DNA of 64,000 bases from IMG/VR virus record IMGVR_UViG_3300034104_003795, positions 26,370-90,369 of that record; one strand, given 5' to 3'. The notes under the pieces were generated by a model. That model ran no database searches. It saw only the letters and a program-made list of their open reading frames with translations, and was not told the DNA's origin. Of this stretch, positions 28,649-63,850 are shown piece after piece; within the stretch, counting starts at the first letter, position 1, and every line of letters starts with the position of its first letter. The DNA is from a virus. Both the position numbers and the translations under genes were made by a program.

Positions 28649-28653
28649 AATTT

Positions 28654-37138: not shown

Positions 37139-37164
37139 TAAGTCATTGATTATCAATCAGTTAT
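37139..37164. promoter_or_regulatory. TAAGTCATTGATTATCAATCAGTTAT palindromic motif
   Basis: member of recurrent TTGATNATCAA motif family; overlaps 3' end of 37153-38112 gene. Confidence 0.45.
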
Positions 37165-38112: not shown

Positions 38113-38113
38113 A

Positions 38114-38419
38114 TTAAATATTTACATTAGCTTTCCAAAACTGCCACCATTTTTTCTTTGGCGGTGGTACACATTGTGAGAACGGATTATCTCCAAATGA
38201 AACCGTATCCAAGTATTTAGCACTCATCATATTCAAGAATACCTCTTGATATTTTTCAGGAATATTATCAAAGTCAGCTTCAATTTTTACATCTAAACTA
38301 ATAGCACCATCACCAATTGTAGTTAATTTTAAGTTATTGTGAATAGTTACTACTTTGGCGGCTTTTACATTTATATTAGCACCACCACCTAAATATAATT
38401 CACGTTCTTTCTTTGTCAT
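38114..38419 (-). CDS. hypothetical protein, paralog of 25928-26236
   Basis: shared EADFxNIP core. Confidence 0.5.
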   Translation of the reverse strand: MTKKERELYLGGGANINVKAAKVVTIHNNLKLTTIGDGAISLDVKIEADFDNIPEKYQEVFLNMMSAKYLDTVSFGDNPFSQCVPPPKKKWWQFWKANVNI

Positions 38420-38420
38420 A

Positions 38421-38825
38421 TTAATCTATTTTTATAACTCTAGTAACACGTCCGGTTACCATTTTCATTTTCTTTTGTGAAGCCGGTGGTTCACCTATGC
38501 CGTTAGCCATCCAGCTTTTTATTTCCATCTCACCCAAATAATCGGATACGTTTGGAATATATTTTTTACCAAAATCTTCTAATATATGCCACTCACATAT
38601 ATCTTTTACCGAAACTAATTTACCATCTGAATTATGGATATACTCGCCAAAAATTGGTATCATAACTTCGAAGATAAAAAACATATTATGTGTCAATGCA
38701 CGATGTCTATTATCGGAAAAGTATTTTTTACTACTATCCATTTTGTTATGAAGTGGTAAGTAATCTTCTACCTTGCCACCCCATAACTTAACGGATGATT
38801 GAGAATGTTTTAAGGGATTTGCCAC
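38421..38825 (-). CDS. hypothetical protein (134 aa)
   Basis: ORF only. Confidence 0.45.
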   Translation of the reverse strand: MANPLKHSQSSVKLWGGKVEDYLPLHNKMDSSKKYFSDNRHRALTHNMFFIFEVMIPIFGEYIHNSDGKLVSVKDICEWHILEDFGKKYIPNVSDYLGEMEIKSWMANGIGEPPASQKKMKMVTGRVTRVIKID

Positions 38826-38831
38826 TTTAAA

Positions 38832-39212
38832 TTAGTTTTGAGTTTCTACAATATCGTCATCTTCATCTTCTTCCAACTCACCATAGTAATCATCGGATAC
38901 AGTTGTTTCACAAGTCAACTCACCATCTTCATAACGAATACGGCCTGTTGTACCGGCATTATTGAAATTATACACCACACCGGTTGCATCAATAATTTCA
39001 AATAAGAAATCAATATCATCGCCTTCACTCATATCCCAATCACCTTTTACCTCTGACCACTTTCCGTCTTTATAATCGGATACGTGAATTGAATGAAATG
39101 AATCAAAGTTATCACCACCACCACAAAACTCAATTTCAACTTCCGAAGTTTCTGAATTGAAATCAGGATAATACTCTTTAATTTTAGCTAAAAATTGTTT
39201 TTTAAGTCCCAT
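38832..39212 (-). CDS. acidic hypothetical protein (126 aa)
   Basis: Asp/Glu-rich C-terminus. Confidence 0.45.
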   Translation of the reverse strand: MGLKKQFLAKIKEYYPDFNSETSEVEIEFCGGGDNFDSFHSIHVSDYKDGKWSEVKGDWDMSEGDDIDFLFEIIDATGVVYNFNNAGTTGRIRYEDGELTCETTVSDDYYGELEEDEDDDIVETQN

Positions 39213-39229
39213 AACATTTGTTTTTGTTT

Positions 39230-39667
39230 TTATAAATTGTTTTCTTCTATTTTATTTTCTACTCTTATTCTTATACAGGTTTGAGGTAACTTACAACTCA
39301 TTAAATAATTGTTTACATACCCCATTATATTAGCTGAACCAATTGGGTTAGCCGAATGTACATAGATTTGTGGTAAAGGTATATTTTTAGTCATACTTTC
39401 AGCCACCAACCATTTAGCACAATCATATCCAGTTTTTTCATTTACTATATTATCGTAATTCAATTTGTAATTTGGAAGTGCATTGTTATAAAATTCATCT
39501 GTAGCTTGTTCACCTAAATCGTGGTCTAATGAAATCACTTCATAATTTTCTAAACCATTCAATCTAATATGTGCTACAAAGTCATCATAACTTCTGACAA
39601 TTGTCCAATCTTCTGCAATTGGAGTTCTAATATCATCCAAATACAATCTTATTTTTTGTTTTTTCAT
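39230..39667 (-). CDS. hypothetical protein (145 aa)
   Basis: ORF only. Confidence 0.45.
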   Translation of the reverse strand: MKKQKIRLYLDDIRTPIAEDWTIVRSYDDFVAHIRLNGLENYEVISLDHDLGEQATDEFYNNALPNYKLNYDNIVNEKTGYDCAKWLVAESMTKNIPLPQIYVHSANPIGSANIMGYVNNYLMSCKLPQTCIRIRVENKIEENNL

Positions 39668-39671
39668 AACT

Positions 39672-40433
39672 CTACATTAAAAATTCAATCTCACCAGTTT
39701 CAAAATTATAATTGAAGCTAATCGGATTATTTTCAGCCTCATATCTTAAATTGCAACTACATCCATTAAAAGTATGCAAATCATGCCACTTAGTCAATCC
39801 CATAGTTTTCCAACCATATGCCTCATGTATATGTCCCGCAAAATGTAAGTGTGGTTGCACTTCTCTTAATCGGTGATATAAATCTGAACATCCTACATTT
39901 TGATTCGTATTAGATGCCCTATCATTGTATCCGTATATTGGAGTATGTGTAATAACAATATCGGTATCCATTGGTATTTCATTCCAACATTGTGTTATAT
40001 CATGCCCCCTATCTTTATTAAATGCCCACCCATATCCAAAAGACGGTGAATGTGGTGAACCCCAAATGTTAATACCTTCTAACTTAATAGAACTATTCTC
40101 TAAATAATAAACGTTATCGGGTAAATTATCTAATAACTCAATTAACCAATCGGGTTTACCTTCACTACCCGGCGTATCAAATACCCTTCTCTCAAAGTAT
40201 GCAGATTTTTCTTCGTACATTCGTTCACTTTGAAATGTAAGGTCGTGGTTACCAGCTATAAACACTTTGTGTGTATAATCCTGCTTATCAAACCATTCAA
40301 TAAACTTTTCCACTTCGTGCTTTCTACCAATAGACGTGAAATCGCCTGAATGGATTAATAGTTGTCCACCAGGCAATTTACCATTAAGTTGATTATGCTT
40401 ATTGTGTGTATCCGAAATGTGCGTAATTCTCAT
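39672..40433 (-). CDS. calcineurin-like metallophosphoesterase
   Basis: motifs 'ISDTH', 'GDFT', 'GNHD', 'GHIH'. Confidence 0.75.
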   Translation of the reverse strand: MRITHISDTHNKHNQLNGKLPGGQLLIHSGDFTSIGRKHEVEKFIEWFDKQDYTHKVFIAGNHDLTFQSERMYEEKSAYFERRVFDTPGSEGKPDWLIELLDNLPDNVYYLENSSIKLEGINIWGSPHSPSFGYGWAFNKDRGHDITQCWNEIPMDTDIVITHTPIYGYNDRASNTNQNVGCSDLYHRLREVQPHLHFAGHIHEAYGWKTMGLTKWHDLHTFNGCSCNLRYEAENNPISFNYNFETGEIEFLM

Positions 40434-52374: not shown

Positions 52375-52463
52375 TTGATTCTCAATCAAGAATTTTTGGG
52401 CAAAAAATAACCCATTGAAAATCAATGAGTTATGAATGTGTTGAAAATCAATGAGTTATGAAT
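52375..52463. promoter_or_regulatory. cluster of three palindromic motifs: ATTGATTCTCAATCAAGAATTTTT, CATTGAAAATCAATGAGTTATGAAT x2
   Basis: same motif family and same arrangement as 48308-48391. Confidence 0.5.
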
Positions 52464-52825: not shown

Positions 52826-53257
52826 CTATTTTGAATTTTCCAAATCTAAATTGGCAGTGTACCATTCTAATATTTCTTCACCTGCTATTATATCCCTAGT
52901 TGCAACTCCATCTGTTGTTATATTAATATTTTCTTCATTTGGATATGCCGAATTACAATACGATACCGAATGACAAATGAAATTTATCCCTTTAAACAAT
53001 CTAAATAATTTATAACCACAATCTTCGTTTATAAAATACATATCCAAAAGGTCTTGTACCCCTTCTGGTAAATTTTTTAATTTATCTTTGGGAAGCATAT
53101 ACACACCCGTTTCTCCATCCCATTGTGGAAATACTTGCTCTCCTTTTTTTATATCTTTAATTGCAAATACACCTATCCCGTGAATTGGTGATGGTGCAAT
53201 TTTGCTTTTCACATTCATTTCTAAATGGTCTATAACCTTTTGTATATTTGTATTCAT
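52826..53257 (-). CDS. SET-domain protein (putative lysine methyltransferase)
   Basis: 'HGIGVFAIKDIKKGEQVF', 'FICHSVSYCNSAYPNE' (NHSCxPN-like), C-terminal 'EILEWY' (ELxxDY-like). Confidence 0.5.
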   Translation of the reverse strand: MNTNIQKVIDHLEMNVKSKIAPSPIHGIGVFAIKDIKKGEQVFPQWDGETGVYMLPKDKLKNLPEGVQDLLDMYFINEDCGYKLFRLFKGINFICHSVSYCNSAYPNEENINITTDGVATRDIIAGEEILEWYTANLDLENSK

Positions 53258-54792
53258 TAACTATAAAATTTTCCTGACATTAAATTCTTTATAAATTGTT
53301 CCTGTGTTTGTAATAACTTAGCTCCTTCATCCGCACGTCTTATAATTTTAGTGTGTAGTTGTTTTGTATAATGTATAAGAGAATATTTTTTTAATGTATT
53401 AAATACTGCGGGTTTAGATAGAGTTTCCAATCCGTACAATGTCCAACACCAAACACCCCAACCAGATGAACCATTGTAACTGGAAAAATCAAATGTAGAA
53501 GGACTTCTATATTTACAAATTTCTATGATATTTTTTACAAAATCACTCATTGGTAATTCGTTATTACAAAACTTCCAAAATTCTGAATCATTTCGTTTAT
53601 TATAGTAATGGATTCGTATTAGGTCTTTATACTCATCTACCAGAGTTCCCATAACCTCATTGTATCGTTTTAAATTTTGTTCTAAAAAAAATTCTTTTTT
53701 ATTTAAAGAAAAGAAATTACTGAATAACGTATCAACTTGTAATAACGTTGTATGAATTGACGTAGCTTGAAGTGGTTCTAAAAATGAAGATGATAATCCT
53801 ATCGCTACAACATTTTTAATCCAAAATTTATCTAATCTACCTGGATCAAAACTTAATTTTCTTATCGGTTGTATTTTCCTACCAGTTGTTTTTTCCAATT
53901 CTTCAAGCGCCTTATCATCACTTACAAATTTATCGCAATATACATAACCACATCCATATCTTTCTTGCGTTGGTATTTGCCACATCCAACCATTCGGCAT
54001 TGACCAAGCCAAAGTTTCTAATTTAGCTTCTTCCGGTCCTTTTTCGTATTGATGTATATAAGGTAATGCGGAATTTACGGGAAGTTCATTTGAATAACTT
54101 ATCCATTTTGCACCCATTTTATTAATTAACTTCTTATGAAATCCAGTACAATCTATCCAAAAGTCTGCCTCTAACGGAATTAAGTTACCTTCCAATTTTA
54201 CGCTATCACATTCACCTGTTATTGGATTTATATTAACATCATCAACTTTAGCATCTATGTGTTTTACACCGTTTTCTATACAAACACTTTTAAAATATTC
54301 ACCAACTTTATGGGCATCAAAGTGATAACCATGTATACCCATATTTTCTTTACCGTTAATGTGATAATCCGATATTCCTCTGGACATAAAATGTCCCGCT
54401 ATGGATGAATCATAAAAATTACCCTGCATACAGGAAGCAAGAAATTCACTATCTACGTTATATCCCGCGGTTTCAGACGGTTGTATGGGACTTAAAAATT
54501 CAGTACCAACCCCATTCCAATCTTTAAAACGTATTCCGTATTTTGGCACTGCACGTGACCCTTTAAAAAAGTTAAATTCAGTTTTTTTCAAAGCAGAAAA
54601 ACGAGTAGCTACCATTTGTTGCATTAACGCAGTAGTTCCTTCTCCGGCCCCGATAATTGGTATATCGGAACTTTCAATTACAGTAATATCTATTTGCTCT
54701 AATCTATCCTGTTTGTATAATTGGTTTTGATTTGCAAAGAATGCCGCAGTCAACCAACCCGCTGTTCCCCCACCTACTATAACAATTTTCAT
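53257..54792 (-). CDS. flavin-dependent halogenase (tryptophan-halogenase family)
   Basis: N-terminal FAD fold 'MKIVIVGGGTAGWLTAAFFA'; 'IIGAGEGTT'; diagnostic 'GWMWQIP' (WxWxIP); 'SFLEPLQATSI' (= F(I/L)EPLxSTGI motif). Confidence 0.75.
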   Translation of the reverse strand: MKIVIVGGGTAGWLTAAFFANQNQLYKQDRLEQIDITVIESSDIPIIGAGEGTTALMQQMVATRFSALKKTEFNFFKGSRAVPKYGIRFKDWNGVGTEFLSPIQPSETAGYNVDSEFLASCMQGNFYDSSIAGHFMSRGISDYHINGKENMGIHGYHFDAHKVGEYFKSVCIENGVKHIDAKVDDVNINPITGECDSVKLEGNLIPLEADFWIDCTGFHKKLINKMGAKWISYSNELPVNSALPYIHQYEKGPEEAKLETLAWSMPNGWMWQIPTQERYGCGYVYCDKFVSDDKALEELEKTTGRKIQPIRKLSFDPGRLDKFWIKNVVAIGLSSSFLEPLQATSIHTTLLQVDTLFSNFFSLNKKEFFLEQNLKRYNEVMGTLVDEYKDLIRIHYYNKRNDSEFWKFCNNELPMSDFVKNIIEICKYRSPSTFDFSSYNGSSGWGVWCWTLYGLETLSKPAVFNTLKKYSLIHYTKQLHTKIIRRADEGAKLLQTQEQFIKNLMSGKFYS

Positions 54793-54797
54793 ATATT

Positions 54798-55007
54798 TTA
54801 TTTTTTAGTTTCTTCCATATTACCAACATATTGATATACATCCCATAATCTTCCTAATGCGTATTCCAATTGAAATTTAAGTTCACTATCAGTTTCCGTT
54901 AATGGATGTTCTACACAATGGTCATTTAGGGTACACATTATAACATGCAATCTGTCCATCAATTCTAAATAGTGTCCATCATTAATTTTTGTTTCATTTT
55001 CTGGCAT
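54798..55007 (-). CDS. hypothetical protein (69 aa)
   Basis: ORF only. Confidence 0.4.
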   Translation of the reverse strand: MPENETKINDGHYLELMDRLHVIMCTLNDHCVEHPLTETDSELKFQLEYALGRLWDVYQYVGNMEETKK

Positions 55008-55018
55008 ATATCATTTGT

Positions 55019-55735
55019 TTAAAATTCAGTTATACATCCTGTATTTTTGAAATTACTTCTATAATGAACCCGAATACCTCTGTCTTTTTGAGTTGCTATG
55101 TATGGTTTAAGTTCATTAATATCAAATATGTCAAACCATTTTTTCATATAACTATCCCAAGATATAGTGTTACATATATCAAACATTTTTTCAATTGAAT
55201 AGTTTTCTTTTTGTTGAACATATGCCATACCAAGACTTGATTCAGGTGTATTATTATTCCTTAAATTGTTAATTAGATTGTCTTTTGTTTTATTAAACAT
55301 GATTTTCATATTCTCAACAGTACCACATATTATATGGTCTCCTATGTGAAATGGATATGGACAATTCAATGGTCTAAAAAACATAGAACTACATAATAGT
55401 TTTTCATCTGACTTTAATGAATGGAACATCTTATCAATATCGGTCCAGTATTCATCACCTCTAACTTTAATAGCATATTTTGTTTCAGTTAAATTCAATC
55501 CATTTAAAGTTGATACCAATTGATATTCTAAGTTTTGCATATGTCCCTGTCCGGCGAATTCAAAATCAACTCCATCTGCTTTTACCACTTTCCAATTTGA
55601 TGGTATTTCAAATGGTATAGTATAATCATTCCAAGTTGATATGATAACTTTATGATTTGAATAATTTTCAATCCACATTTTCAATGGCTCATCTTCACAT
55701 CTTCCTTGTATTATAATTGTTAAATCATTTATCAT
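55019..55735 (-). CDS. hypothetical protein (238 aa), possibly glycosyltransferase-like
   Basis: in-operon ORF; no firm motif. Confidence 0.4.
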   Translation of the reverse strand: MINDLTIIIQGRCEDEPLKMWIENYSNHKVIISTWNDYTIPFEIPSNWKVVKADGVDFEFAGQGHMQNLEYQLVSTLNGLNLTETKYAIKVRGDEYWTDIDKMFHSLKSDEKLLCSSMFFRPLNCPYPFHIGDHIICGTVENMKIMFNKTKDNLINNLRNNNTPESSLGMAYVQQKENYSIEKMFDICNTISWDSYMKKWFDIFDINELKPYIATQKDRGIRVHYRSNFKNTGCITEF

Positions 55736-55738
55736 ATT

Positions 55739-56464
55739 TTATTTTTTAACCTTTTCATATAAAATTTCCCAATCAATAAAAGATTGCACTTTGTCACCAT
55801 ACTCTTTCATATACCACTCATGCATTTGTTCTGCATGTGTAATATCTATATTATAATCAACATACATATTTTCTATTGAATCAAACATATGAAAATATTT
55901 GTACATCGCATCGGGTTCACCATACGCAAAATAATCGCTCCAATGTGTTTCTATTTTATAGAATTCAATGTTACTTTTTGGAACTACGAATTTAGCTTTT
56001 TTGAGTTCAATCTGATGGAATAACATGTCAAATCTTACTCTCATTATAACATCGTACTGATGTGGATTTTCTATTAAATCCCAAGCACGCTTAACCATCC
56101 ACCATTGGTCTCTTATTCTTTCAACATAATAAGTTCCATGATATATTGCTCTTGGATTTACTTTAAACACATCATCATCTCTATCTAAAAATGAAATATT
56201 AGGGAATCTATTTTTTTCATAATTTTCCCAAGATTCAAAGTTATAATTTTTAAGATATGGTTTTAATTTTGATATTAAACTATCTTTATCAACTGGATGA
56301 TATGCTAAATTAAACTTACCAACACTATTGATAGAATGTTGATTGACATCCCAAGTATTAAAATAAACATCTGCATTATATTTTTTAAATAAATGTTCTT
56401 CTAAATTAGCAAATACTAATTCAAAATCTCTACAATGTCCTGTTAATACAATTGCTACTTTCAT
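55739..56464 (-). CDS. hypothetical protein (241 aa), possibly glycosyltransferase-like
   Basis: 'MKVAIVLTGHCRDFE' Rossmann-like start; no firm motif. Confidence 0.4.
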   Translation of the reverse strand: MKVAIVLTGHCRDFELVFANLEEHLFKKYNADVYFNTWDVNQHSINSVGKFNLAYHPVDKDSLISKLKPYLKNYNFESWENYEKNRFPNISFLDRDDDVFKVNPRAIYHGTYYVERIRDQWWMVKRAWDLIENPHQYDVIMRVRFDMLFHQIELKKAKFVVPKSNIEFYKIETHWSDYFAYGEPDAMYKYFHMFDSIENMYVDYNIDITHAEQMHEWYMKEYGDKVQSFIDWEILYEKVKK

Positions 56465-56465
56465 A

Positions 56466-56921
56466 TTATATTTTAACTAAATGGTCAGCCGCATAAGTTG
56501 CAATTGGACCTAATGTTTTATATCTAACTTCATATCCCATACCTTCTACTAAACCAACCGCTTGTCTAAACACTTCATTTGATTTAAAGCGTGGGTCTGG
56601 ATTTAAATCAATATCAATCCATTTTGGTTTTGGAATACCAGCTTCTTTTAAAAATTCCGCAGTTTCAATTGCATACCAAACTTCATTCAATAATCTAACT
56701 GAACGAGTAAACTCTCTATCTGCTTTCCATCTTCTATAAAGTACATGCGCACCTTTTCCGGTAGTGTACAAAGCCACAACAACCGCATATATTGTTTTAT
56801 CTGCAAAGTTTTGGGAATCGCATCCAATAAGAATTTCAATTCCATCATTGTTTTCCAAATAATTTTTAACATAAGGGATAAGTTCAAATTCTTCTTTACC
56901 ATACAATTTTTTGTACTTCAT
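56466..56921 (-). CDS. hypothetical protein (151 aa), possibly RNase-H-like fold
   Basis: weak resemblance to YkuK/DUF458 family; by-eye only. Confidence 0.3.
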   Translation of the reverse strand: MKYKKLYGKEEFELIPYVKNYLENNDGIEILIGCDSQNFADKTIYAVVVALYTTGKGAHVLYRRWKADREFTRSVRLLNEVWYAIETAEFLKEAGIPKPKWIDIDLNPDPRFKSNEVFRQAVGLVEGMGYEVRYKTLGPIATYAADHLVKI

Positions 56922-56926
56922 ATATT

Positions 56927-57739
56927 TTATTTTTTACCAAAGTGAGATACTATGTGTTTTACTATTAAACTCATTTTATCTGCACTTTCATTTGCTACTC
57001 TTTGCACTTCTTCGTGCGTTATTTCTACTATCTTACCTGCAACTCCTAAATCAGTAATCAAAGACATTGAGAATACTTTAACCCCCATATGTCTAGCAAC
57101 TAATACTTCAGGTATAGTTGACATCCCAACTGCATCTCCACCTATTATACTCATATATCTATACTCTGCTGGCGTTTCATAGTTTGGACCGGATACTGCT
57201 ATCAATACTCCTTCATGCGTTCTAATATCAACTTCACATTGTTTCGCTACTTCAATCATTTCCTTATCATATGCCGCACTAACATCTAAAAAACGAGGTC
57301 CCATTGAATCATCATTTGGACCTAACAATGGATTATCACCCATTAGATTAATATGGTCATTTACAAACATCACATCACCAATTTCAAAGTTAGGATTCAT
57401 ACCACCCGTTGCGTTGGATGTTATCAATCTTTCGATACCTAACATTTTCAGTATTCGTATTGGGTATGTAATTTCTTGCATTGTATATCCTTCGTAATAA
57501 TGATTTCTACCCTGAAGTGCTACTACCGGTACTCCATCAAGTGTACCAAATATTAAATTACCACTATGCCCTTCAATCGTTGGTGTGATAAAACCCGGAA
57601 TATCTTTATATGGTATTGTAGCTGTAATATCTATATCGTTAGCCACATCACCTAATCCTGAACCCAATACCAATCCTATCTTTGGTCTAGTATATGTAAA
57701 CTTATTAATGTAATTTAATGTTTCGTTATATTGTGCCAT
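56927..57739 (-). CDS. purine nucleoside phosphorylase (PunA-type, PNP/MTAP family)
   Basis: 'IGLVLGSGLG', 'HSGNLIFGTLDGVPVVALQGRNHYYEG', 'SNATGG'. Confidence 0.8.
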   Translation of the reverse strand: MAQYNETLNYINKFTYTRPKIGLVLGSGLGDVANDIDITATIPYKDIPGFITPTIEGHSGNLIFGTLDGVPVVALQGRNHYYEGYTMQEITYPIRILKMLGIERLITSNATGGMNPNFEIGDVMFVNDHINLMGDNPLLGPNDDSMGPRFLDVSAAYDKEMIEVAKQCEVDIRTHEGVLIAVSGPNYETPAEYRYMSIIGGDAVGMSTIPEVLVARHMGVKVFSMSLITDLGVAGKIVEITHEEVQRVANESADKMSLIVKHIVSHFGKK

Positions 57740-58157
57740 TTGTTATTCTTTTTTTAATTTCGGTTGTACTGATTCCTCTGGTGTATGATAGGTAAACTAA
57801 TACAATATCATTTTCATCCAGCCAATCCTGTGTGAATTGCATTTGTGTATAATAATCTTTCTTTGCCCAATCATCACCAATTGCTATGATATCAGGTTTA
57901 ACTTGTAATATTGATGGTTTACTATCTGCACCCCCGATGTTAGGAATAACCTCATCAACAAACTTACAAAACTCCAAAGACTTCTTTCGTTCTTCGTAAG
58001 TCATAATTGGTGGTTTACCTTTATAGTATTCAATAAACTCATCTGTGTTTAGTGATACTATTACTTTATCAGCTATTTTAGAACATTGTTTAAGAAAGTT
58101 CATGTGGCCATAATGTAATATGTCAAATGTTCCACCGGTGTATAATATTTTACTCAT
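57726..58157 (-). CDS. cytidylyltransferase-like nucleotidyltransferase (TagD/RfaE-domain-II type)
   Basis: 'LYTGGTFDILHYGHMNFL' (HxGH motif). Confidence 0.7.
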   Translation of the reverse strand: MSKILYTGGTFDILHYGHMNFLKQCSKIADKVIVSLNTDEFIEYYKGKPPIMTYEERKKSLEFCKFVDEVIPNIGGADSKPSILQVKPDIIAIGDDWAKKDYYTQMQFTQDWLDENDIVLVYLSYTRGISTTEIKKRITNGTI

Positions 58158-58845
58158 ATATTCGTTTAAAAGGTATATTTACTCTGTTTAATTCTGCTTC
58201 AATTTCTATTACATTATTTGTATGTAATCCATCCCCACAATAATCCGTATATTTTCTAGTAGGAAGTTCTAATATAATTGAATTTTCTATTTGTTTTGTT
58301 TTATCATATAATTCATGTCCTAATAATATTTCAATAGATTCATTTCTTTCGAGAATTGGAAATAGATGATTTAATTTTTTAGGATTTATTGCAAGTGTAC
58401 AAGCATTAACTTCATACGATGGTCTAGTTGCATATGCAATTGGAGGCCACGGTGGTGCGGGCCAATCTCCACATGCTAAATCAAATGTATTATCTAAAAG
58501 AAATCTAATTGTTTCACCGCTTGTAAAAAATGAATCTTCATCTAATATTAGAACTTTATCATATTCTCTAGTTAGAGCCTGTATTTTATTTATACCTTCA
58601 GTAAAGTAAAATCCATTTAATGTAGAACCTGCTGCAGATGTATTTCCAAAATTCCATTTCTTCTTATCAAAATAAATTGATACTCCTAATTCTAAAAACT
58701 TTGGTATGTATTGAATGTATTCGCTTATATCATTATCATATAAAAAAAGACATCTTATATCAATATTAGGAAAAAGATGTCTCACCGATTGAACCGATAA
58801 ATAAGTTCTATCAGTTCGTTTATAATCTTTAAAAAATACTATCAT
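58150..58845 (-). CDS. hypothetical protein, possibly glycosyltransferase-like
   Basis: ORF-track start 58869 is a TTG inside tRNA-Leu; internal ATG (MIVFFKDYK) used; 'VLILDEDSFF' DxD-like. Confidence 0.4.
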   Translation of the reverse strand: MIVFFKDYKRTDRTYLSVQSVRHLFPNIDIRCLFLYDNDISEYIQYIPKFLELGVSIYFDKKKWNFGNTSAAGSTLNGFYFTEGINKIQALTREYDKVLILDEDSFFTSGETIRFLLDNTFDLACGDWPAPPWPPIAYATRPSYEVNACTLAINPKKLNHLFPILERNESIEILLGHELYDKTKQIENSIILELPTRKYTDYCGDGLHTNNVIEIEAELNRVNIPFKRIYE

Positions 58846-58861
58846 ATTATTAAGTTGTTTG

Positions 58862-58942
58862 TGCCCCAAGAGAGATTCGAACTCTCACACCTCTCGATAT
58901 CAGTTCCTAAAACTGATGTGTCTACCGTTCCACCATCAGGGC
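58862..58942 (-). tRNA. tRNA-Leu (anticodon TAG)
   Basis: type-II cloverleaf; acceptor GCCCTGA/TTGGGGC, anticodon loop TTTAGGA, 13-nt variable arm, T-arm GAGAG-TTCGAAT-CTCTC. Confidence 0.8.
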
Positions 58943-59470
58943 ATATTTTTGTAATGATTTTAAAAATAATTCAATTCCTTTGTTGTGATTAGCTTCCCAA
59001 TCATCCGGATTACCGCTATCACTTACATATTTGTATGCAGTAAAATCAAATCCATAAATCTTACATACCTTTGCAATTGAGTATGCTTCCATATCACATA
59101 TTACAGATGGTGTGGTTTGAAAATGGTCTTGTGTATAACATATATTATATCCCAATCCATTGAAATCAATATTACCCATCAATATTTCATTATCAAATGG
59201 TGTTTTTGTTTTATCTGCAAATGGTCTAGCGTCCATATCGTTTTGGACAAATGTTTTACACTTAAATAAACTACCAACCATAACGGCATGCCCACCCGCA
59301 CTTCCGTAGTTTATAACTACTACATCTTTGGGGTCTAAATCTTTAAGAGTTTCAGTTGCTTTTATAGCCGCATTTACTTTTCCAACACCAGTATAAACAA
59401 CTTTAACACCTTCCGGTGCTTTTTCCTTTGGAAACTCATTTTCTAATGCAACAAATAATATAACGTTCAT
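58922..59470 (-). CDS. mtnN: 5'-methylthioadenosine/S-adenosylhomocysteine nucleosidase
   Basis: 'MNVILFVALENEF', 'VVYTGVGKVNAAIKATETL', 'VINYGSAGG', 'DMEAYSIAKVC'; start set at internal ATG 59470; 3' end overlaps tRNA-Leu by ~21 nt. Confidence 0.7.
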   Translation of the reverse strand: MNVILFVALENEFPKEKAPEGVKVVYTGVGKVNAAIKATETLKDLDPKDVVVINYGSAGGHAVMVGSLFKCKTFVQNDMDARPFADKTKTPFDNEILMGNIDFNGLGYNICYTQDHFQTTPSVICDMEAYSIAKVCKIYGFDFTAYKYVSDSGNPDDWEANHNKGIELFLKSLQKYALMVER

Positions 59471-59477
59471 AACAATA

Positions 59478-59565
59478 AGTATGCTGTTAGAGTAGGATTC
59501 GAACCATACAGGAGGAGATTCAAAAAGTAACATTTAGTGCTTGCAAGCTGGTGGTCAACCCCATA
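59478..59565 (-). other. tRNA-like fragment with degenerate T-arm (possible pseudo-tRNA)
   Basis: contains GGTTCGAATCC T-loop but T-stem pairs only 2 bp and no acceptor pairing found. Confidence 0.25.
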
Positions 59566-59661
59566 TTACTTTTCTATTTCTTTATCCTCGCCCACGAGAC
59601 GAGTGGGTGTGTTTGCCAGGTTATAACATAGATAACCAATTTCACCATCTAACAATTTTTG

Positions 59662-59746
59662 CGGAGAAACAGGGATTCGAACCCCAGAACCTGTTACAGT
59701 TGCCGGTTTTCAAGACCGGTGCATTCAACCACTCTGCCATTTCTCC
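59662..59746 (-). tRNA. tRNA-Ser (anticodon TGA)
   Basis: acceptor GGAGAAA/TTTCTCC, anticodon stem-loop CCGGT-CTTGAAA-ACCGG, long variable arm. Confidence 0.85.
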
Positions 59747-59763
59747 GTTAAGTACTCTAATAA

Positions 59764-60027
59764 TTAGAATACTTTTTCTTCGCTTTTACCGTCTAAACTA
59801 TTTTCGGTATCGGCATGCTTTCTTCTAGCTTCTTCTGCTTCTTTATATATTCTAACCCAAGTTAAGAATATATCTACTGGCGCTAATATCCAACACATAA
59901 TCAATAGAGCCATAGAATCTAATCCAGGTGAAATACCTAATCCACCAGCCATTACATCTCTATTCCATTTTCGTATTGACATTATAACACAATAGATGAA
60001 ACACATTACATAATAAGTAATAAACAT
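59764..60027 (-). CDS. small membrane protein (87 aa) within tRNA island
   Basis: ORF with 2-3 hydrophobic helices; uncertain. Confidence 0.3.
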   Translation of the reverse strand: MFITYYVMCFIYCVIMSIRKWNRDVMAGGLGISPGLDSMALLIMCWILAPVDIFLTWVRIYKEAEEARRKHADTENSLDGKSEEKVF

Positions 60028-60046
60028 AACATTTGTTTTTAATGAG

Positions 60047-60118
60047 TTACCCGAACTGGACTCGAACCAATACGAACAGAATCAAAATCTGTGATGCTAA
60101 CCATTACATCATCGGGCA
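60047..60118 (-). tRNA. tRNA-Gln (anticodon TTG)
   Basis: U1-A72 acceptor TGCCCGA/TCGGGTA, anticodon stem-loop ACAGA-TTTTGAT-TCTGT. Confidence 0.8.
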
Positions 60119-60254
60119 ATAATCTCAAGCATTCTACTTCCCGCAGTGCGAAATTGTATCTTACTTAGCCCATCGCTAGCGGTATGGGTACTTGAGTTTT
60201 AGTAATTGAAAAACATCTATTCTTCTTGCGGCCTAATACTAACAGGCCCACTTG

Positions 60255-60327
60255 AGCGAGAGACCAGGCTCGAACTGGCCACCTGAAGCTTGGAAGGCTA
60301 CCGCTCTACCAAATGAGCTACTCTCGC
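60255..60327 (-). tRNA. tRNA-Gly (anticodon TCC)
   Basis: acceptor GCGAGAG/CTCTCGC, D-arm GCTC-ATTTGGTA-GAGC, anticodon loop CTTCCAA. Confidence 0.85.
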
Positions 60328-60385
60328 TAAAGAGTGTAGTGGAAGATATCATTCCTGCAGTTACTACACGTTTTATCTGCTTTGG

Positions 60386-60458
60386 AGCGGAAGACCAGGC
60401 TCGAACTGGCCACCCTGACCTTGGCAAGGTCATGCTCTACCAAATGAGCTACTTCCGC
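60386..60458 (-). tRNA. tRNA-Gly (anticodon GCC)
   Basis: acceptor GCGGAAG/CTTCCGC, anticodon stem-loop TGACC-TTGCCAA-GGTCA. Confidence 0.85.
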
Positions 60459-60515
60459 AATTAATAGGTGAGGCTATTACCATCATTAAGTCTTTAATGC
60501 TTTAGACACCTATTG

Positions 60516-60589
60516 TGGACCCACTTGGAATCGAACCAAGCACCTAATGATTATGAGTCATTTGCTCTAACCGAATGAGCTATAGGTCC
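60516..60589 (-). tRNA. tRNA-Met (anticodon CAT; elongator/initiator/Ile2 not distinguishable)
   Basis: acceptor GGACCTA/TGGGTCC, anticodon stem-loop AATGA-CTCATAA-TCATT. Confidence 0.8.
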
Positions 60590-60593
60590 GATG

Positions 60594-60667
60594 TGGAGAA
60601 GAAGGGATTCGAACCCATGACCCCCTGCGTGCAAGGCAGGTGCTCTAGCCAACTGAGCTACTTCCCC
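60594..60667 (-). tRNA. tRNA-Ala (anticodon TGC)
   Basis: acceptor GGGGAAG/CTTCTCC with G3:U70 identity pair, anticodon stem-loop CCTGC-CTTGCAC-GCAGG. Confidence 0.85.
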
Positions 60668-60678
60668 ATAAGTGAACG

Positions 60679-60763
60679 TACCGGGGATGGGATTCGAACC
60701 CACACGAGCGATTTCTGCTCAAAAGATTTTAAGTCTTTCATGTCTACCATTCCATCACCCCGG
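60679..60763 (-). tRNA. tRNA-Leu (anticodon TAA)
   Basis: acceptor GCCGGGG/CCCCGGT, anticodon loop CTTAAAA, long variable arm GAGC-AGAAATC-GCTC. Confidence 0.85.
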
Positions 60764-60789
60764 CGGCGATACTATTTTTAATAACTATA

Positions 60790-60831
60790 CAAAGATACGA
60801 ATAATAATTTAATTATCCAAATCCTTTTTTA
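60790..60831 (-). promoter_or_regulatory. Bacteroidetes-type promoter candidate driving minus-strand tRNA cluster
   Basis: +strand 'CAAAGATAcgaataataatttaattatCCAAAT'. Confidence 0.4.
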
Positions 60832-61258
60832 TATTATATATTTTAACCCTTCTGATTTTAGTTCCACTCTCATCAGGATTAATTAATATATCAATTTTTT
60901 TTCTCCACCTCTTTGCCATCAAATCTCTGACAGTATAAACACCATCTAATTTTCCAGCACCCTTCACTCTTACTTTTTGTCCAAACTTATACTTTCGTTT
61001 CAGGTCTCTACTAATCGCTATTACCTTTTGTTTCTTTGGATTAAGACTATCCAACTTATAACCACTTGCGGTAATTAAGGGAGTTGAATCGGTTTGGCCG
61101 GCGGATACCGTATATGTTGTAACCGTAACTACATCATAAGGTATGTGTTTCTTTTCTATCATTATATCCGCAACTTCTTCCTCACTCATTTCGGAGTCAA
61201 TCATATTATGTGGAATAAACATAATAACAGTTAAGAATAAAAGAATAACTTTTCTCAT
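60809..61258 (-). CDS. 3D-domain (MltA/YuiC-like) putative peptidoglycan hydrolase, secreted
   Basis: signal peptide MRKVILLFLTVIMFIP; 'VTVTTYTVSAGQTDSTPLITASGYKL' and 'GVYTVRDLMAKRWRKKIDIL' match 3D-domain pattern. Confidence 0.6.
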   Translation of the reverse strand: MRKVILLFLTVIMFIPHNMIDSEMSEEEVADIMIEKKHIPYDVVTVTTYTVSAGQTDSTPLITASGYKLDSLNPKKQKVIAISRDLKRKYKFGQKVRVKGAGKLDGVYTVRDLMAKRWRKKIDILINPDESGTKIRRVKIYNIKKDLDN

Positions 61259-61276
61259 AACTTATTTTTTATTTAG

Positions 61277-61350
61277 TGATTCGGAAAGGATTCGAACCTT
61301 TGACCCCAAACTTAGAAGGTTTGTGCTCTATCCAGCTGAGCTACCGAACC
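61277..61350 (-). tRNA. tRNA-Arg (anticodon TCT)
   Basis: acceptor GGTTCGG/CCGAATC, anticodon stem-loop CAAAC-CTTCTAA-GTTTG. Confidence 0.85.
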
Positions 61351-61456
61351 ATATAGTAAGAGAGATACTACGTCTAATATCTCAATGTTTCTACCGGCCG
61401 TCTATGGAATATGCGCACTGACCATAAACTAAACTTTCGTCTGCTCTTACTACTTG

Positions 61457-61527
61457 CGGAAAGTACGGGAATCGAACCCGTCACATTGCCGTGACAAGGC
61501 AACATTATACCGATTAACTAACTCTCC
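61457..61527 (-). tRNA. tRNA-Asp (anticodon GTC)
   Basis: acceptor GGAGAGT/ACTTTCC, anticodon stem-loop TTGCC-TTGTCAC-GGCAA, 4-nt variable loop. Confidence 0.8.
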
Positions 61528-61556
61528 AAATTACATTATCGTTCTTTAACTAATTT

Positions 61557-61814
61557 TTATTTTTTATTGTTAGTTAATTTTTGTTCTAATTTATCCAATC
61601 TCGAATCTAATTGAGAAAAGATGTGATTTTCTAATTCATCTGCTCTACGATTAAAGTCAGTTTGATTTCTATCAACTTGACGATACAAATCTTCGCCGAT
61701 GCTTTCTAATTCTTTTTCTATTTTTCTTGCCTTAACAAGCCCAATAACAGCAACTATCGACACTGCGATAACCACCACTACAGACATTCCTAAAACGAAT
61801 GATAATATTTCCAT
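61557..61814 (-). CDS. small membrane-anchored coiled-coil protein (85 aa)
   Basis: N-terminal TM 'FVLGMSVVVVIAVSIVAVIGLV' + charged helical region. Confidence 0.4.
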   Translation of the reverse strand: MEILSFVLGMSVVVVIAVSIVAVIGLVKARKIEKELESIGEDLYRQVDRNQTDFNRRADELENHIFSQLDSRLDKLEQKLTNNKK

Positions 61815-61851
61815 AATTTATTTCTCCTATATGTCAAAGAACGATAATGTG

Positions 61852-61924
61852 AGCCCAAGACAAGAATCGAACTTGCGACCTACTGATTACAAATCAGTTG
61901 CTCTACCTGCTGAGCTACTCGGGC
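61852..61924 (-). tRNA. tRNA-Thr (anticodon TGT)
   Basis: acceptor GCCCGAG/CTTGGGC, anticodon stem-loop ACTGA-TTTGTAA-TCAGT. Confidence 0.85.
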
Positions 61925-62024
61925 GTTTAGGAAAGTAGAAGATGGGTGCGTGGACATCTACTTTTATGATTGGCATTTCTAACCGATTTATGCATACTAA
62001 TATGCTTATCCCAATCAACCTTTG

Positions 62025-62096
62025 TACTCTGTACGGGATTCGAACCCGTATTACATCCGTGAAAGGGATGTGACCTAACCCTTAGTCGAACAGAGC
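62025..62096 (-). tRNA. tRNA-Glu (anticodon TTC)
   Basis: acceptor GCTCTGT/ACAGAGT, 3-bp D-stem with 10-nt loop, anticodon stem-loop CATCC-CTTTCAC-GGATG. Confidence 0.8.
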
Positions 62097-62114
62097 GTTA
62101 ATGTTAATGTTATA

Positions 62115-62146
62115 CAAATATACGAATAATATCTGATATAACCAAA
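62115..62146 (-). promoter_or_regulatory. Bacteroidetes-type promoter candidate driving minus-strand tRNA cluster
   Basis: +strand 'CAAATATAcgaataatatctgatataaCCAAAT'. Confidence 0.4.
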
Positions 62147-62309
62147 TCTATTTTAACAATAGGTTTTATATTTTTTTATACCACCTTTCAAACGTCTTAT
62201 ACATATCATACAAGCTCCGTTTTCTCTTATTATTTTTCTTATTCGGTATAACTTATTACTTCGTCTATTAATTTCAAACTTATCATTTTTCATAATGTCC
62301 AATTTAATG

Positions 62310-62398
62310 CGGAGAATGTTGGATTCGAACCAACGGTACAACTTTCATCGTACAACGGTTTAGCAAACCGGCCCCATCGTCCACTCGGGCAATTCTCC
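62310..62398 (-). tRNA. tRNA-Ser (anticodon GCT)
   Basis: acceptor GGAGAAT/ATTCTCC, anticodon loop TTGCTAA, long variable arm, T-arm GTTGG-TTCGAAT-CCAAC. Confidence 0.8.
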
Positions 62399-62400
62399 GT

Positions 62401-62475
62401 TGGGGTGTAAGGACGGTATCGAACCGTCTTATCTAGCTCCACAAACTAGCGCATCACCTTAATGCTTCAAACACC
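62401..62475 (-). tRNA. tRNA-His (anticodon GTG) with G-1 and genomically encoded CCA
   Basis: extra 5' G pairing with C73; anticodon stem-loop CTAGT-TTGTGGA-GCTAG; 3' ...CTTACAC-C-CCA. Confidence 0.8.
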
Positions 62476-62481
62476 ATTTGG

Positions 62482-62550
62482 TTGCGGGGCCAGGAATCGA
62501 ACCTGAATATCTGGCTTATGAGACCAAACGGATTACCTAATCTCCCCACA
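62482..62550 (-). tRNA. second CAT-anticodon tRNA (Met/fMet/Ile2) with shortened D-arm
   Basis: acceptor TGTGGGG/CCCCGCA, anticodon loop CTCATAA, T-arm TCAGG-TTCGATT-CCTGG; D-arm only ~13 nt. Confidence 0.55.
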
Positions 62551-62558
62551 ATATCAAG

Positions 62559-62629
62559 AGGCGAGTACAAGATTCGAACTTGTGTAAAAGCTTTTGCAGA
62601 GCTCCATATAACCACTCTAACAACTCGCC
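62559..62629 (-). tRNA. tRNA-Cys (anticodon GCA)
   Basis: acceptor GGCGAGT/ACTCGCC, anticodon stem-loop GAGCT-CTGCAAA-AGCTT, T-arm ACAAG-TTCGAAT-CTTGT. Confidence 0.75.
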
Positions 62630-62635
62630 ATTTTG

Positions 62636-62708
62636 TAGCCCCTAAAGGATTCGAACCCATACTCCGAAGTCCGTAGCTTCGTGTGCTAATCCATTACACC
62701 AAAGAGCC
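62636..62708 (-). tRNA. tRNA-Arg (anticodon ACG)
   Basis: acceptor GGCTCTT/AGGGGCT (three G:U pairs), anticodon stem-loop CGAAG-CTACGGA-CTTCG. Confidence 0.7.
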
Positions 62709-62712
62709 ATAG

Positions 62713-62783
62713 CACCGGTGGAAGGACTCGAACCCTCACAAACAGTTTTGGAGACTGGTATGCTACCATTACACTACACCGAT
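62713..62783 (-). tRNA. tRNA-Trp (anticodon CCA)
   Basis: A1-U72 acceptor ATCGGTG/CACCGGT (as in E. coli tRNA-Trp), anticodon loop CTCCAAA. Confidence 0.8.
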
Positions 62784-62789
62784 ATATTG

Positions 62790-62863
62790 TTGGAATAAAA
62801 AGAATCGAACTTTTAACCTTCCGCGTATCAGACGGATGCTCTAACCAATTGAGCTATATTCCA
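62790..62863 (-). tRNA. tRNA-Ile (anticodon GAT)
   Basis: acceptor TGGAATA/TATTCCA, D-arm GCTC-AATTGGTTA-GAGC, anticodon loop CTGATAC. Confidence 0.8.
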
Positions 62864-62911
62864 ATTTTGCACTTCCTATTTCCCAATGCTGTGTAGTGCG
62901 AACCATATCGG

Positions 62912-62985
62912 TTGGGAATGCAGGATTCGAACCTACGGCCTCTAGCTCCCAAAGCTAGCGCGATACCTGACTACGCTAATTCCCA
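62912..62985 (-). tRNA. tRNA-Pro (anticodon TGG)
   Basis: acceptor TGGGAAT/ATTCCCA, anticodon stem-loop CTAGC-TTTGGGA-GCTAG. Confidence 0.8.
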
Positions 62986-63060
62986 ATGTGATAAGTTTCC
63001 ATCCTATCGTATAATGTGTACATCATTATTTTAACTCAATATTAAGTTCGGAACTTTTTG

Positions 63061-63134
63061 TGACCCCTAATGGATTCGAACCATTGACTCCTATATTAAA
63101 AGTATAGTGCTCTAACCAACTGAGCTAAGAGGTC
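63061..63134 (-). tRNA. tRNA-Lys (anticodon TTT)
   Basis: acceptor GACCTCT/AGGGGTC, anticodon stem-loop CTATA-CTTTTAA-TATAG. Confidence 0.85.
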
Positions 63135-63174
63135 TGACTTTTGTCATACTTGTCACTTTCCATAGTATTTGTTT

Positions 63175-63384
63175 TTAATTGTTATCTTCTAATTCTATTT
63201 TACAATATTCGTCCAATGATATTTTATCAAATGTTATCCATTGTCCATTTCCAAAATCTACTGCGAACTTACCATCTTCTGGTAGATACGCAGTTACTAT
63301 TCCTTTACTACCCATTTCAATTTTTCCTTTTGGTGTCACCAACTCTTTTATTAATGTACCAACTCCATGATTAAAATCTGCCAT
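63175..63384 (-). CDS. hypothetical protein (69 aa) inside tRNA island
   Basis: ORF not overlapping tRNAs. Confidence 0.4.
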   Translation of the reverse strand: MADFNHGVGTLIKELVTPKGKIEMGSKGIVTAYLPEDGKFAVDFGNGQWITFDKISLDEYCKIELEDNN

Positions 63385-63406
63385 AATTGTTTTTTTAATT
63401 GTTAAG

Positions 63407-63479
63407 TGGTAATGAGTGGTATCGAACCACTTCCTAAAGATTTTCAGTCTTTCGCTTCTACCTAGTTAGCTTCATCACC
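63407..63479 (-). tRNA. tRNA-Phe (anticodon GAA)
   Basis: acceptor GGTGATG/CATTACC, anticodon stem-loop AAAGA-CTGAAAA-TCTTT. Confidence 0.8.
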
Positions 63480-63483
63480 GGTG

Positions 63484-63565
63484 TTGGGGTAGACGGACTC
63501 GAACCGCCGAACTCAAATGAGAGCTGATTTACAGTCAGCCGCAATTGCCACTATGCGATACCCCA
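63484..63565 (-). tRNA. tRNA-Tyr (anticodon GTA)
   Basis: acceptor TGGGGTA/TACCCCA, anticodon stem-loop GCTGA-CTGTAAA-TCAGC, 14-nt variable arm. Confidence 0.8.
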
Positions 63566-63670
63566 ATGGCGTTCCATATAACTCACATTTGATAGCCCTA
63601 TCGTGCTACTCACTCAATCCTACAACAGCTTTCAACTGAGAGATTGTAGGAATGTGTATGGAACATGTTG

Positions 63671-63745
63671 TGGAAGTTACAGGATTCGAACCTATGACCC
63701 TCACGGTGTAAACGTGATGCTCTAAACCAACTGAGCTAAACTTCC
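63671..63745 (-). tRNA. tRNA-Val (anticodon TAC)
   Basis: acceptor GGAAGTT/AACTTCC, anticodon stem-loop TCACG-TTTACAC-CGTGA. Confidence 0.85.
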
Positions 63746-63778
63746 TACTTATCCAATATGTCAAAGAACTTAATCTTG

Positions 63779-63850
63779 CGCTCCCTCTTGGATTCGAACC
63801 AAGGACCAACAGATTAACAGTCTGCTGCGCTACCGCTGCGCCAAAGGAGC
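63779..63850 (-). tRNA. tRNA-Asn (anticodon GTT)
   Basis: acceptor GCTCCTT/AGGGAGC, anticodon stem-loop GCAGA-CTGTTAA-TCTGT. Confidence 0.85.

Follow-up and report, generated by a model that had tools for sequence, protein, structure and literature searches.

Flavin-dependent halogenases are common in aquatic phages, with some 20 of 153 cyanophage genomes carrying such a gene, and the enzyme of cyanophage Syn10, VirX1—an iodinating, broad-substrate halogenase that prefers aza-indole-type heterocycles—is prized as a biocatalyst. No natural substrate has been described for a phage halogenase. Phage halogenases, phage glycosyltransferases (GTs) and hyperplastic accessory regions have all been seen before. 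In this report, we focused on a 64,000-nucleotide (64-kb) stretch of viral DNA, hereafter the window (IMG/VR record IMGVR_UViG_3300034104_003795, positions 26,370 to 90,369), in which a halogenase gene lies within a compact island of minus-strand genes, together with a minimal SET-domain gene, GT-like genes and nucleoside enzymes. What is new is a fixed, terminator-delimited island in which zero to three halogenases are shuffled with glycosyl- and methyltransferases, the way a minimal SET protein and a Zn-ribbon protein always accompany it, and the abundance of the system in metagenomes, where we found 599 SET homologs. We would give an even chance to the reading that the block represents one version of a hypervariable tailoring island, which occupies a fixed locus and is made of separable modules, not of one linear pathway. 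We found no description of a phage halogenase–SET–glycosyltransferase cluster in the literature, in line with a preliminary description of this DNA that knew of no phage pathway with this combination; phage halogenases themselves were already known from VirX1.

Open reading frame (ORF) calls combined with Pfam, NCBIfam and PHROG profile searches place the whole gene set on the minus strand, between 52463 and 59470. The preliminary description had announced about a dozen tightly packed or overlapping genes, and all of them are present with the coordinates it gave, neighbors overlapping by 1-14 nt or being separated by gaps of 1-36 nt. In transcription order, the island and the hairpin that follows it read:

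58922-59470, minus strand: nucleosidase resembling methylthioadenosine/S-adenosylhomocysteine nucleosidase (MTAN), PNP_UDP_1 at E = 4.7e-12, 182 aa from its ATG in an ORF that reaches 59533
58861-58942, minus strand: tRNA-Leu(tag), found by ARAGORN and Rfam, last gene of a 25-tRNA array
58150-58845, minus strand: DxD239, a predicted GT8-like GT-A glycosyltransferase of 231 aa from its ATG, without family hit, with a D-E-D motif
57726-58157, minus strand: cytidylyltransferase of TagD/ECT/CCT type, CTP_transf_like at E = 3.4e-20
56927-57739, minus strand: purine nucleoside phosphorylase (PNP) of the trimeric PunA type, above equivalog cut-offs
56466-56921, minus strand: DUF458/YkuK RNase H-like protein, Pfam RNaseH_like at E = 1.7e-17
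55739-56464, minus strand: unk241, a predicted GT-A-fold glycosyltransferase-like protein of 241 aa, without family hit
55019-55735, minus strand: WavE-family protein of lipopolysaccharide (LPS)-core type, Pfam WavE at E = 9.6e-10
54798-55007, minus strand: sm69, a small His-rich helical protein of 69 aa, without family hit
53257-54792, minus strand: flavin-dependent halogenase, Trp_halogenase at E = 7.4e-89
52826-53257, minus strand: minimal SET-domain protein of 143 aa, Pfam SET at 36.4 bits
52463-52789, minus strand: Cys108, a Zn-ribbon-like CxxC...CxxC protein of 108 aa, without family hit
52397-52433, minus strand: intrinsic-terminator-like hairpin, a 12-bp stem and a T run, about 30 nt past the Cys108 stop codon

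Identical gene order was recovered in independent assemblies from several samples, which excludes both chance and assembly artefact. The terminator-like hairpin probably marks the end of the transcription unit, with Cys108 as its last gene. It is found in 60 of 64 distinct relatives at -8 kcal/mol or better, with the T run directly after it and with compensatory changes in the stem. At the other end, the MTAN-like ORF runs 21 nt into tRNA-Leu(tag) with its 3' end, and in relatives this tRNA marks the left side of the island, where it precedes either the DUF458 gene or the DxD gene. The island is probably transcribed together with the tRNA array and finishes at the conserved terminator. The array itself (58861-63850, minus strand) holds 25 tRNAs at the right end of the window with several small ORFs interspersed, for example a 149-aa ORF (60809-61258) that is 80% identical in locus L042; the island therefore does not end the protein-coding part of the window, as had been claimed. 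The GC content is low throughout (approximately 30-39%) and the same in the island as in the rest of the window. An Rfam scan in and near the island returned tRNAs only and no riboswitch, a sigma-70 promoter scan was uninformative, with fewer matches than in shuffled sequence, and PADLOC defence models matched 0 of 10 island proteins. Pfam gave nothing for the small downstream ORFs (g84, g92 and others), and no near-identical DNA was found among cultured phages.

The block does not behave as a fixed operon. Searches of IMG/VR and metagenome contigs with the halogenase, SET and WavE proteins, with both GT-A proteins and with a SET family profile recovered well over 100 loci. Most belong to one clade, with contigs of up to 274 kb, whose members share with the window many small genes, the tRNA array and the order DUF458 ... 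SET–Zn-ribbon–g84–g92. This clade is one of abundant, uncultured, tRNA-rich, low-GC large phages. Loci spanning the whole slot, with duplicates collapsed and with DUF458, SET and Zn-ribbon genes required, form a set of 44 distinct variants displaying 38 gene orders. The DUF458 gene, whose product is 77-100% identical in relatives, forms the left border and SET/Zn-ribbon the right border in 44 of 44 variants, partly by this selection. Between the borders, one- or two-gene cassettes are reshuffled among relatives. The halogenase is present in 84% of the variants, with 0, 1, 2 or 3 copies in 7, 22, 13 and 2 variants, respectively. Then come sm69 (68%), a Methyltransf_24 O-methyltransferase-like gene (36%), the MTAN-like gene (at least 36%), the 241-aa GT-A (30%), a Methyltransf_23 gene (27%), WavE (23%), the cytidylyltransferase (16%), the D-E-D GT (14%) and PNP (11%), the last being an insertion; as many contigs break off left of the DUF458 gene, the shares of the MTAN-like, DxD and cytidylyltransferase genes come out too low. 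The halogenase occurs without any GT, GTs occur without the halogenase, and SET occurs without either, seven variants having SET and no halogenase.

Several loci illustrate what the slot and its surroundings can hold. In L042/L043 (8095-9988), a GT29 sialyltransferase-like gene is accompanied by one that fuses CMP-sugar synthetase (CTP_transf_3) and RraA-like aldolase domains, and the 10 kb analyzed upstream of SET contain no halogenase. A distant clade member, L055/L056 (e.g., L055 7110-18356), carries three divergent halogenases, two NAD-dependent sugar epimerase/dehydratases, a sulfotransferase-like gene and a methyltransferase, with a different CTP_transf_like gene between SET and the Zn-ribbon gene, and also a heme oxygenase and a ferredoxin-dependent bilin reductase (e.g., L055 2535-3672). 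It shares only 35-63% identity, yet the tailoring enzyme types co-localize there too. In L004, NUMOD3- and GIY-YIG-type homing-endonuclease-like ORFs (4809-5597 and 7876-8517) lie inside the tRNA array, and it is possible that they drive rearrangements around the island.

The preliminary description saw in this block a single tailoring pathway. That claim was not supported by the comparison, with 38 architectures among 44 variants, components present in anywhere from 11 to 84% of them, and no scaffold-forming enzyme in the island in Pfam and NCBIfam searches. A single biosynthetic cluster would be expected to combine a co-inherited gene set with a scaffold enzyme, and neither is found here. 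We argue against one linear pathway because the components vary independently, there is no scaffold-forming enzyme, SET/Zn-ribbon persist without halogenase or GTs, and PNP is rare. The separable parts would be three. The first would be nucleoside salvage, in which the MTAN-like nucleosidase and PNP feed a phosphoribosyltransferase encoded elsewhere; the nucleosidase might additionally clear S-adenosylhomocysteine (SAH) or methylthioadenosine (MTA). The second would be glycoconjugate editing by the GT8-like transferase with the TagD/ECT-like cytidylyltransferase, the second GT-A protein and the WavE-like enzyme, presumably directed at a glycan or glycoprotein exposed on the infected cell or virion. 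The third would be a recurrent core of sm69, the VirX1/BrvH-like halogenase, SET and Zn-ribbon proteins, acting on an aromatic substrate and a protein substrate, with reduced flavin coming either from host reductases or from a phage FMN_red protein. The cassette turnover is like that of O-antigen and capsule loci and of giant-virus glycosylation clusters, from which we infer a target under diversifying selection, by this analogy most likely an exposed glycan or glycoprotein.

The halogenase scores 299.1 bits against Pfam Trp_halogenase (cut-off 21) and matches phrog_2928 at 3e-98. Its best match among solved structures is BrvH (PDB 6FRL; E = 1.2e-51, residues 2-425), with VirX1 at E = 3.2e-43. 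The FAD motif GxGxxG (VGGGTAGW) and the WxWxIP motif (GWMWQIP) are present and conserved in 38-40 relatives, and the catalytic lysine, Lys84 (VPKYGIRF), aligns with Lys79 of PrnA and with the BrvH lysine. There are at least two halogenase subtypes in the clade, the window copy being of the SET-proximal subtype. The position of PrnA Glu346 is occupied by Gln342 (codon 53767-53769); the PrnA sequence used for this comparison reproduces the PDB E-value. FLEPLQATSI is found in 4 of 40 related sequences and FLEPLEATSI in 33 of 40. The equivalent Glu-to-Gln change in the active site inactivates one flavin-dependent halogenase, according to a review (its reference 46), and the window enzyme might thus be weak or re-purposed, performing no halogenation or accepting very activated substrates only. 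We consider this very unlikely, since Lys84, GxGxxG and WxWxIP are intact, the protein is full length and 94% conserved in close relatives, and Gln is also found in L003, L045 and the halogenase of the cultured Synechococcus phage Sf-CH3, suggesting a tolerated natural variant.

The constant partners of the halogenase are the SET protein and Cys108. The SET gene has one base in common with the halogenase stop codon, and its product exceeds the Pfam SET cut-off of 22.4 bits over model positions 1-104 of 105, while the family profile aligns to the SET domain of MLL1 (E = 0.0075). The N-terminal GxG (IHGIGVF, invariant Gly27 and Gly29) and the catalytic tyrosine (GEEILEWY, invariant Tyr133) are kept. 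The NHS(C)xxPN motif for binding S-adenosylmethionine (SAM) is altered, with a conserved His and a replaced Asn (NFICHS vs. RFINHS of MLL1), which is Cys in the window and hydrophobic across the family. The protein is a putative protein-lysine methyltransferase, and tblastn found no homolog of it in cultured phages. Cys108 follows SET in all clade loci and is conserved throughout in 75 distinct aligned homologs, including its aromatic C terminus (YYW/YENY), and the SET–Cys108 pair is retained in variants without halogenase. On the other side of the halogenase, sm69 is conserved over its whole length in 37 distinct aligned homologs, with the motif INDGHYLELMDRLH...HPL...YQxxGN. It is present in 68% of the variants, with or without halogenase, and in L046 it forms the C-terminal part of a 402-aa methyltransferase.

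These small proteins also bear on whether the product could be a halogenated small molecule or peptide, an effector or signal for which the halogenase, SET and methyltransferases would modify an aromatic metabolite, sm69 or the Cys108 tail. Such a reading could draw on BrvH and VirX1 halogenating free indoles and other heteroaromatics, on the small conserved ORFs that flank the halogenase, one with the conserved YYW/YENY tail, and on the up to three divergent halogenase paralogs per island. We think it quite unlikely, as there is no machinery for ribosomally synthesized and post-translationally modified peptides (RiPPs), nonribosomal peptide synthesis or polyketide synthesis, and sm69 and Cys108 lack a leader/variable-core pattern. 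That the two proteins are RiPP-like precursors is ruled out by their end-to-end conservation and their persistence without halogenase.

The glycan-type enzymes are the second main component. The preliminary description had spoken of glycosyltransferase-like genes and of four unknown ORFs; the glycosyltransferase-like label seems apt for three of these (DxD239, unk241 and the WavE-like protein), the fourth being DUF458/RNase H-like. Structure prediction, which it had suggested for the unknowns, gave confident models: AlphaFold, run on alignments of the dozens of unnamed metagenomic homologs that DxD239 and unk241 each have, reached predicted local distance difference test scores of 95.5 and 89, respectively. 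DxD239, in which a GT-A fold is joined by a D-E-D motif invariant in 41 homologs, is thus a predicted GT8-like GT-A glycosyltransferase, and unk241 is a predicted GT-A-fold glycosyltransferase-like protein. Their closest relatives are protein-, lipooligosaccharide (LOS)- and glycan-directed enzymes. A BFVD fold search with the DxD protein returned generic viral GT-A matches only (TM-score ≤0.66), tblastn found no match to it in cultured phages, and BLASTP detected no paralogy among the GT-like island proteins. The WavE-like protein scores 38.6 bits against a cut-off of 27, with only model positions 36-171 of 305 matched, and has homologs in L045 (57% identical) and L054 (34%). The L054 contig shares small genes with the window and has a tmRNA gene (5870-6243) beside tRNAs, about 0.5 kb downstream of its WavE homolog.

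The cytidylyltransferase, with 73.1 bits against a CTP_transf_like cut-off of 21 and with HYGH and TRGISTT motifs, matches ethanolamine-phosphate cytidylyltransferase (1.6e-28) and TagD (1.6e-22) in the PDB and stays below equivalog level (95.5 vs. 165.4 bits for TIGR01518, the TagD model, and 73 vs. 181.5 for the RfaE domain II model). It is predicted to make a CDP-alcohol such as CDP-glycerol. Its gene forms with that of DxD239 a pair with an 8-nt overlap that recurs in relatives. The two occur together in the 44-variant set except in L076, where the contig is truncated just left of the cytidylyltransferase gene; L138, a rearranged locus outside this set, has the cytidylyltransferase without the DxD gene. 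Elsewhere in the window, a second glycan-related spot (37153-40433, minus strand) contains a GT2 glycosyltransferase gene (37153-38112), with DUF6915, cREC_REC and calcineurin-like phosphoesterase genes nearby.

Two further genes of the window encode possible partners of island enzymes:

10467-10973, minus strand: phosphoribosyltransferase-domain protein, Pfam Pribosyltran at E = 1.1e-11
33403-33981, minus strand: Flavodoxin_2/FMN_red protein, Flavodoxin_2 at E = 1.2e-24 and FMN_red at E = 8.5e-12, adjoining DUF2452 and ATP-dependent DNA ligase genes

The first could be a salvage partner of PNP and the nucleosidase, completing purine salvage. The PNP assignment is clear at equivalog level (348 vs. 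218 bits for PRK08202 and 317.6 vs. 293.35 for TIGR01700). The MTAN-like protein falls below all MTAN equivalog cut-offs (52.5 vs. 169 bits for PRK05584 and 34.7 vs. 73.8 for TIGR01704), and its best NCBIfam model is the generic "nucleosidase" (67.9 vs. 129 bits), so that it is a member at the PNP_UDP_1 superfamily level only. MTANs in the PDB match it at E of about 3e-6, and the alignment includes the active-site stretches DME and SD: CDMEAYSIAKVC and YVSDSGN of the nucleosidase align, with low domain scores, with VEMEAAAVAQVC and ALSDIAG of PDB 4QEZ, the stretches of E. coli Glu174 and Asp197. Of the enzyme identities first proposed, those of the halogenase, SET protein, PNP and cytidylyltransferase are thus confirmed, and that of MTAN holds at superfamily level and fails at equivalog level. 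PNP and the nucleosidase fit nucleoside salvage better than the removal of SAH/MTA within one pathway, which had also been proposed, since the window contains a phosphoribosyltransferase gene at another place. In L061, a SAM lyase gene (S-AdoMet_lyase, 1-510) is located about 9 kb upstream from the island, its product MTA being an MTAN-type substrate. That the nucleosidase receives its MTA from such a lyase was rejected, as none of the other loci examined has the gene, nor does the window.

The product of the second gene is a candidate NAD(P)H:flavin reductase, from which the halogenase could obtain reduced flavin. The protein is 65-99% identical in 70 IMG/VR contigs of the clade and is not linked to the island. 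A partner dependent on the halogenase would be expected to vary with it, which is not the case: the gene is clade-wide and present even in the L046 contig, which has no halogenase in the stretch examined around the island.

The host is probably a member of the Bacteroidota. The nearest cellular homologs of the PNP, 50-57% identical, are almost all from this phylum, and the best hits of the helicase are phages of Bacteroides and Cellulophaga. A 1086-aa SusC/TonB-dependent-receptor-like ORF (2380-5640, plus strand), combining CarboxypepD_reg, Plug and outer-membrane beta-barrel domains, points the same way; it lies on the strand opposite to nearly all other genes and recurs at this position in an independent ENA contig (L152). 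Outer-membrane receptor genes are unusual in phages, and the SusC-type domain combination is typical of Bacteroidota. Other genes of the window encode adjacent protein-folding helpers, GroES (Cpn10, 4.6e-26) and a cyclophilin-type prolyl isomerase (7e-42) (28202-28965, minus strand), and a SnoaL_2/NTF2-like protein (8177-8503, minus strand).

Several points weigh against an island of separable modules as we describe it. First, while gene identities, folds, synteny, cassette frequencies and the terminator are shown, the substrates, the split into three modules, the host and co-transcription are inferred, and the Gln at the position of PrnA Glu346 may mean that halogenase activity is low or different. 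Second, the truncated contigs noted above make three of the cassettes look rarer than they are, and the best cultured-phage hits of the DNA ligase are Alphaproteobacteria phages, which leaves the host assignment only moderate. Third, the slot contains almost only group-transfer enzymes, unlike a random accessory dump, and this could indicate a single shared target. The halogenase also adjoins SET in most variants, and the two genes are no more than 7 kb apart in the unrelated phages of the L022 group, a proximity that hints at a functional link. Finally, in cultured phages the genes most similar to that of the cytidylyltransferase accompany GT genes in replication/nucleotide-metabolism modules, which would fit a DNA-directed role. 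These last counterpoints keep a single target alive as a reading and, to a lesser degree, DNA modification.

A single target would make the island one combinatorial tailoring pathway, in which every cassette acts on a common scaffold, for example a surface protein or glycan of the virion or an envelope polymer of the host, and in which lineages install different mixes of sugar, glycerol-phosphate, methyl and halogen to diversify its structure. The slot does consist almost exclusively of GT-A transferases, several methyltransferase types, halogenases, a sulfotransferase, epimerases and nucleotidyltransferases, its position and the end of its transcription unit are fixed, the same enzyme types are found together in the distant L055/L056, and the fusion of sm69 with a methyltransferase in L046 suggests an adaptor common to several enzymes. 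However, neither a scaffold-forming enzyme nor a carrier is present, the cassettes vary independently, with PNP in so few variants, and no halogenase is known to act on glycans. On balance, such a pathway is a possible but doubtful explanation. The broader proposition that all the enzymes act on one phage-made or host macromolecule (such as a virion surface protein or glycan, or even DNA) as a combinatorial decoration system seems to us unlikely. If it were true, the island would represent a new kind of viral macromolecule chemistry and yield the first enzymatically halogenated viral biopolymer, revealing the natural role of phage halogenases. If the enzymes do not converge, it is still a rich, well-delimited source of GT-A, methyltransferase and halogenase variants.

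Although it does not itself explain the role of phage halogenases, the island opens this question to experiment through defined partners and natural variants: sm69, SET and the Zn-ribbon protein as recurrent partners, the FMN_red protein as a candidate, and variants with zero to three halogenase copies that amount to natural knock-outs. It also shows large phages to be capable of carrying sets of glycan-tailoring genes that are rapidly reshuffled in the manner of O-antigen loci, which points to an arms race over an exposed glycoconjugate. Among described systems, the glycosylation clusters of giant viruses (chlorovirus PBCV-1 and mimivirus) and the LPS-type sets of cyanomyophages contain no halogenase or SET gene. 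Their targets are known (capsid protein and fibrils), and the clusters have no sequence homology to the island beyond fold.

Phage DNA hypermodification, as in T4 (glucosyl-hydroxymethylcytosine) or RB69 and DLP3 (arabinosyl-5-hydroxycytosine), likewise involves GTs and a sugar-nucleotide-activating nucleotidyltransferase and is variable among relatives. By this parallel, the GTs, methyltransferases and perhaps the halogenase could act on bases or their precursors as a defence against restriction, with PNP and the nucleosidase handling modified nucleosides. The cassette diversity of the island resembles the glyco-diversity of phage DNA modifications, and VirX1 prefers heterocycles of the aza-indole type. 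In Streptomyces phages (Stanwilliamsviridae, e.g., SparkleGoddess genes 77-79), a nucleotidyltransferase 50-54% identical to the island cytidylyltransferase directly follows a GT of about 215 aa with the same 8-nt overlap, and the pair sits in the replication module: in SparkleGoddess (L223, 58982-60700), two GTs and the nucleotidyltransferase, here 51% identical, lie among recombination, exonuclease and deoxynucleoside monophosphate (dNMP) kinase genes. A detectable homology between the DxD protein and this partner GT was looked for and rejected (hhalign probability 0.1%). In L022 (10001-20529), an unrelated phage type, the halogenase and SET genes are part of a replication/ribonucleotide reductase (RNR) module with the order Hal–gp32-like–RecA–5'-3' exonuclease–DnaB–SET–MazG–RNR. 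DNA hypermodification is nevertheless highly improbable. SET domains methylate protein lysines, and the island GTs are of GT-A fold, closest to the protein-, LOS- and glycan-directed enzymes already mentioned. Known DNA glycosylation clusters combine GT-B transferases with adjacent genes for a thymidylate-synthase homolog, a nucleotide kinase and a dCTPase (PMC13326640). The island and the 64-kb window contain none of them, and neither a ThyA-like base hydroxylase nor a dNMP kinase nor 7-deazaguanine genes were seen within the window.

The SET protein and the halogenase have closer counterparts. Like vSET of chlorovirus PBCV-1 and the minimal SET proteins of bacteria and archaea, the window protein belongs to a type of approximately 120-145 aa that has no flanking domains and keeps GxG and the catalytic Tyr; it differs in its replaced NHS Asn, its weak similarity to solved SET structures and its constant pairing with a Zn-ribbon protein. 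BrvH, a metagenomic indole brominase, aligns with the window halogenase at all FAD and halogenation motifs, but it keeps the Glu (FLEPLESTSI), its origin is bacterial or metagenomic, and its gene surroundings are not comparable. VirX1 and the halogenases of T4-like cyanophages and pelagiphage HTVC008M belong to the same Pfam/PHROG family as the window enzyme and have the catalytic Lys and WxWxIP in common with it, the Gln at the Glu346 position being a difference of the window copy from this group. The preliminary description had made a joint function depend on the enzymes occurring together in related phages, which they do, repeatedly, within the clade, but not in cultured cyanophages and the pelagiphage, where the halogenases (30-37% identical) stand alone among unrelated genes. 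Whereas the halogenase of cultured phages is thus solitary, with no SET gene, in the window clade it belongs to a fixed island, next to SET, in zero to three copies among GT and methyltransferase cassettes.

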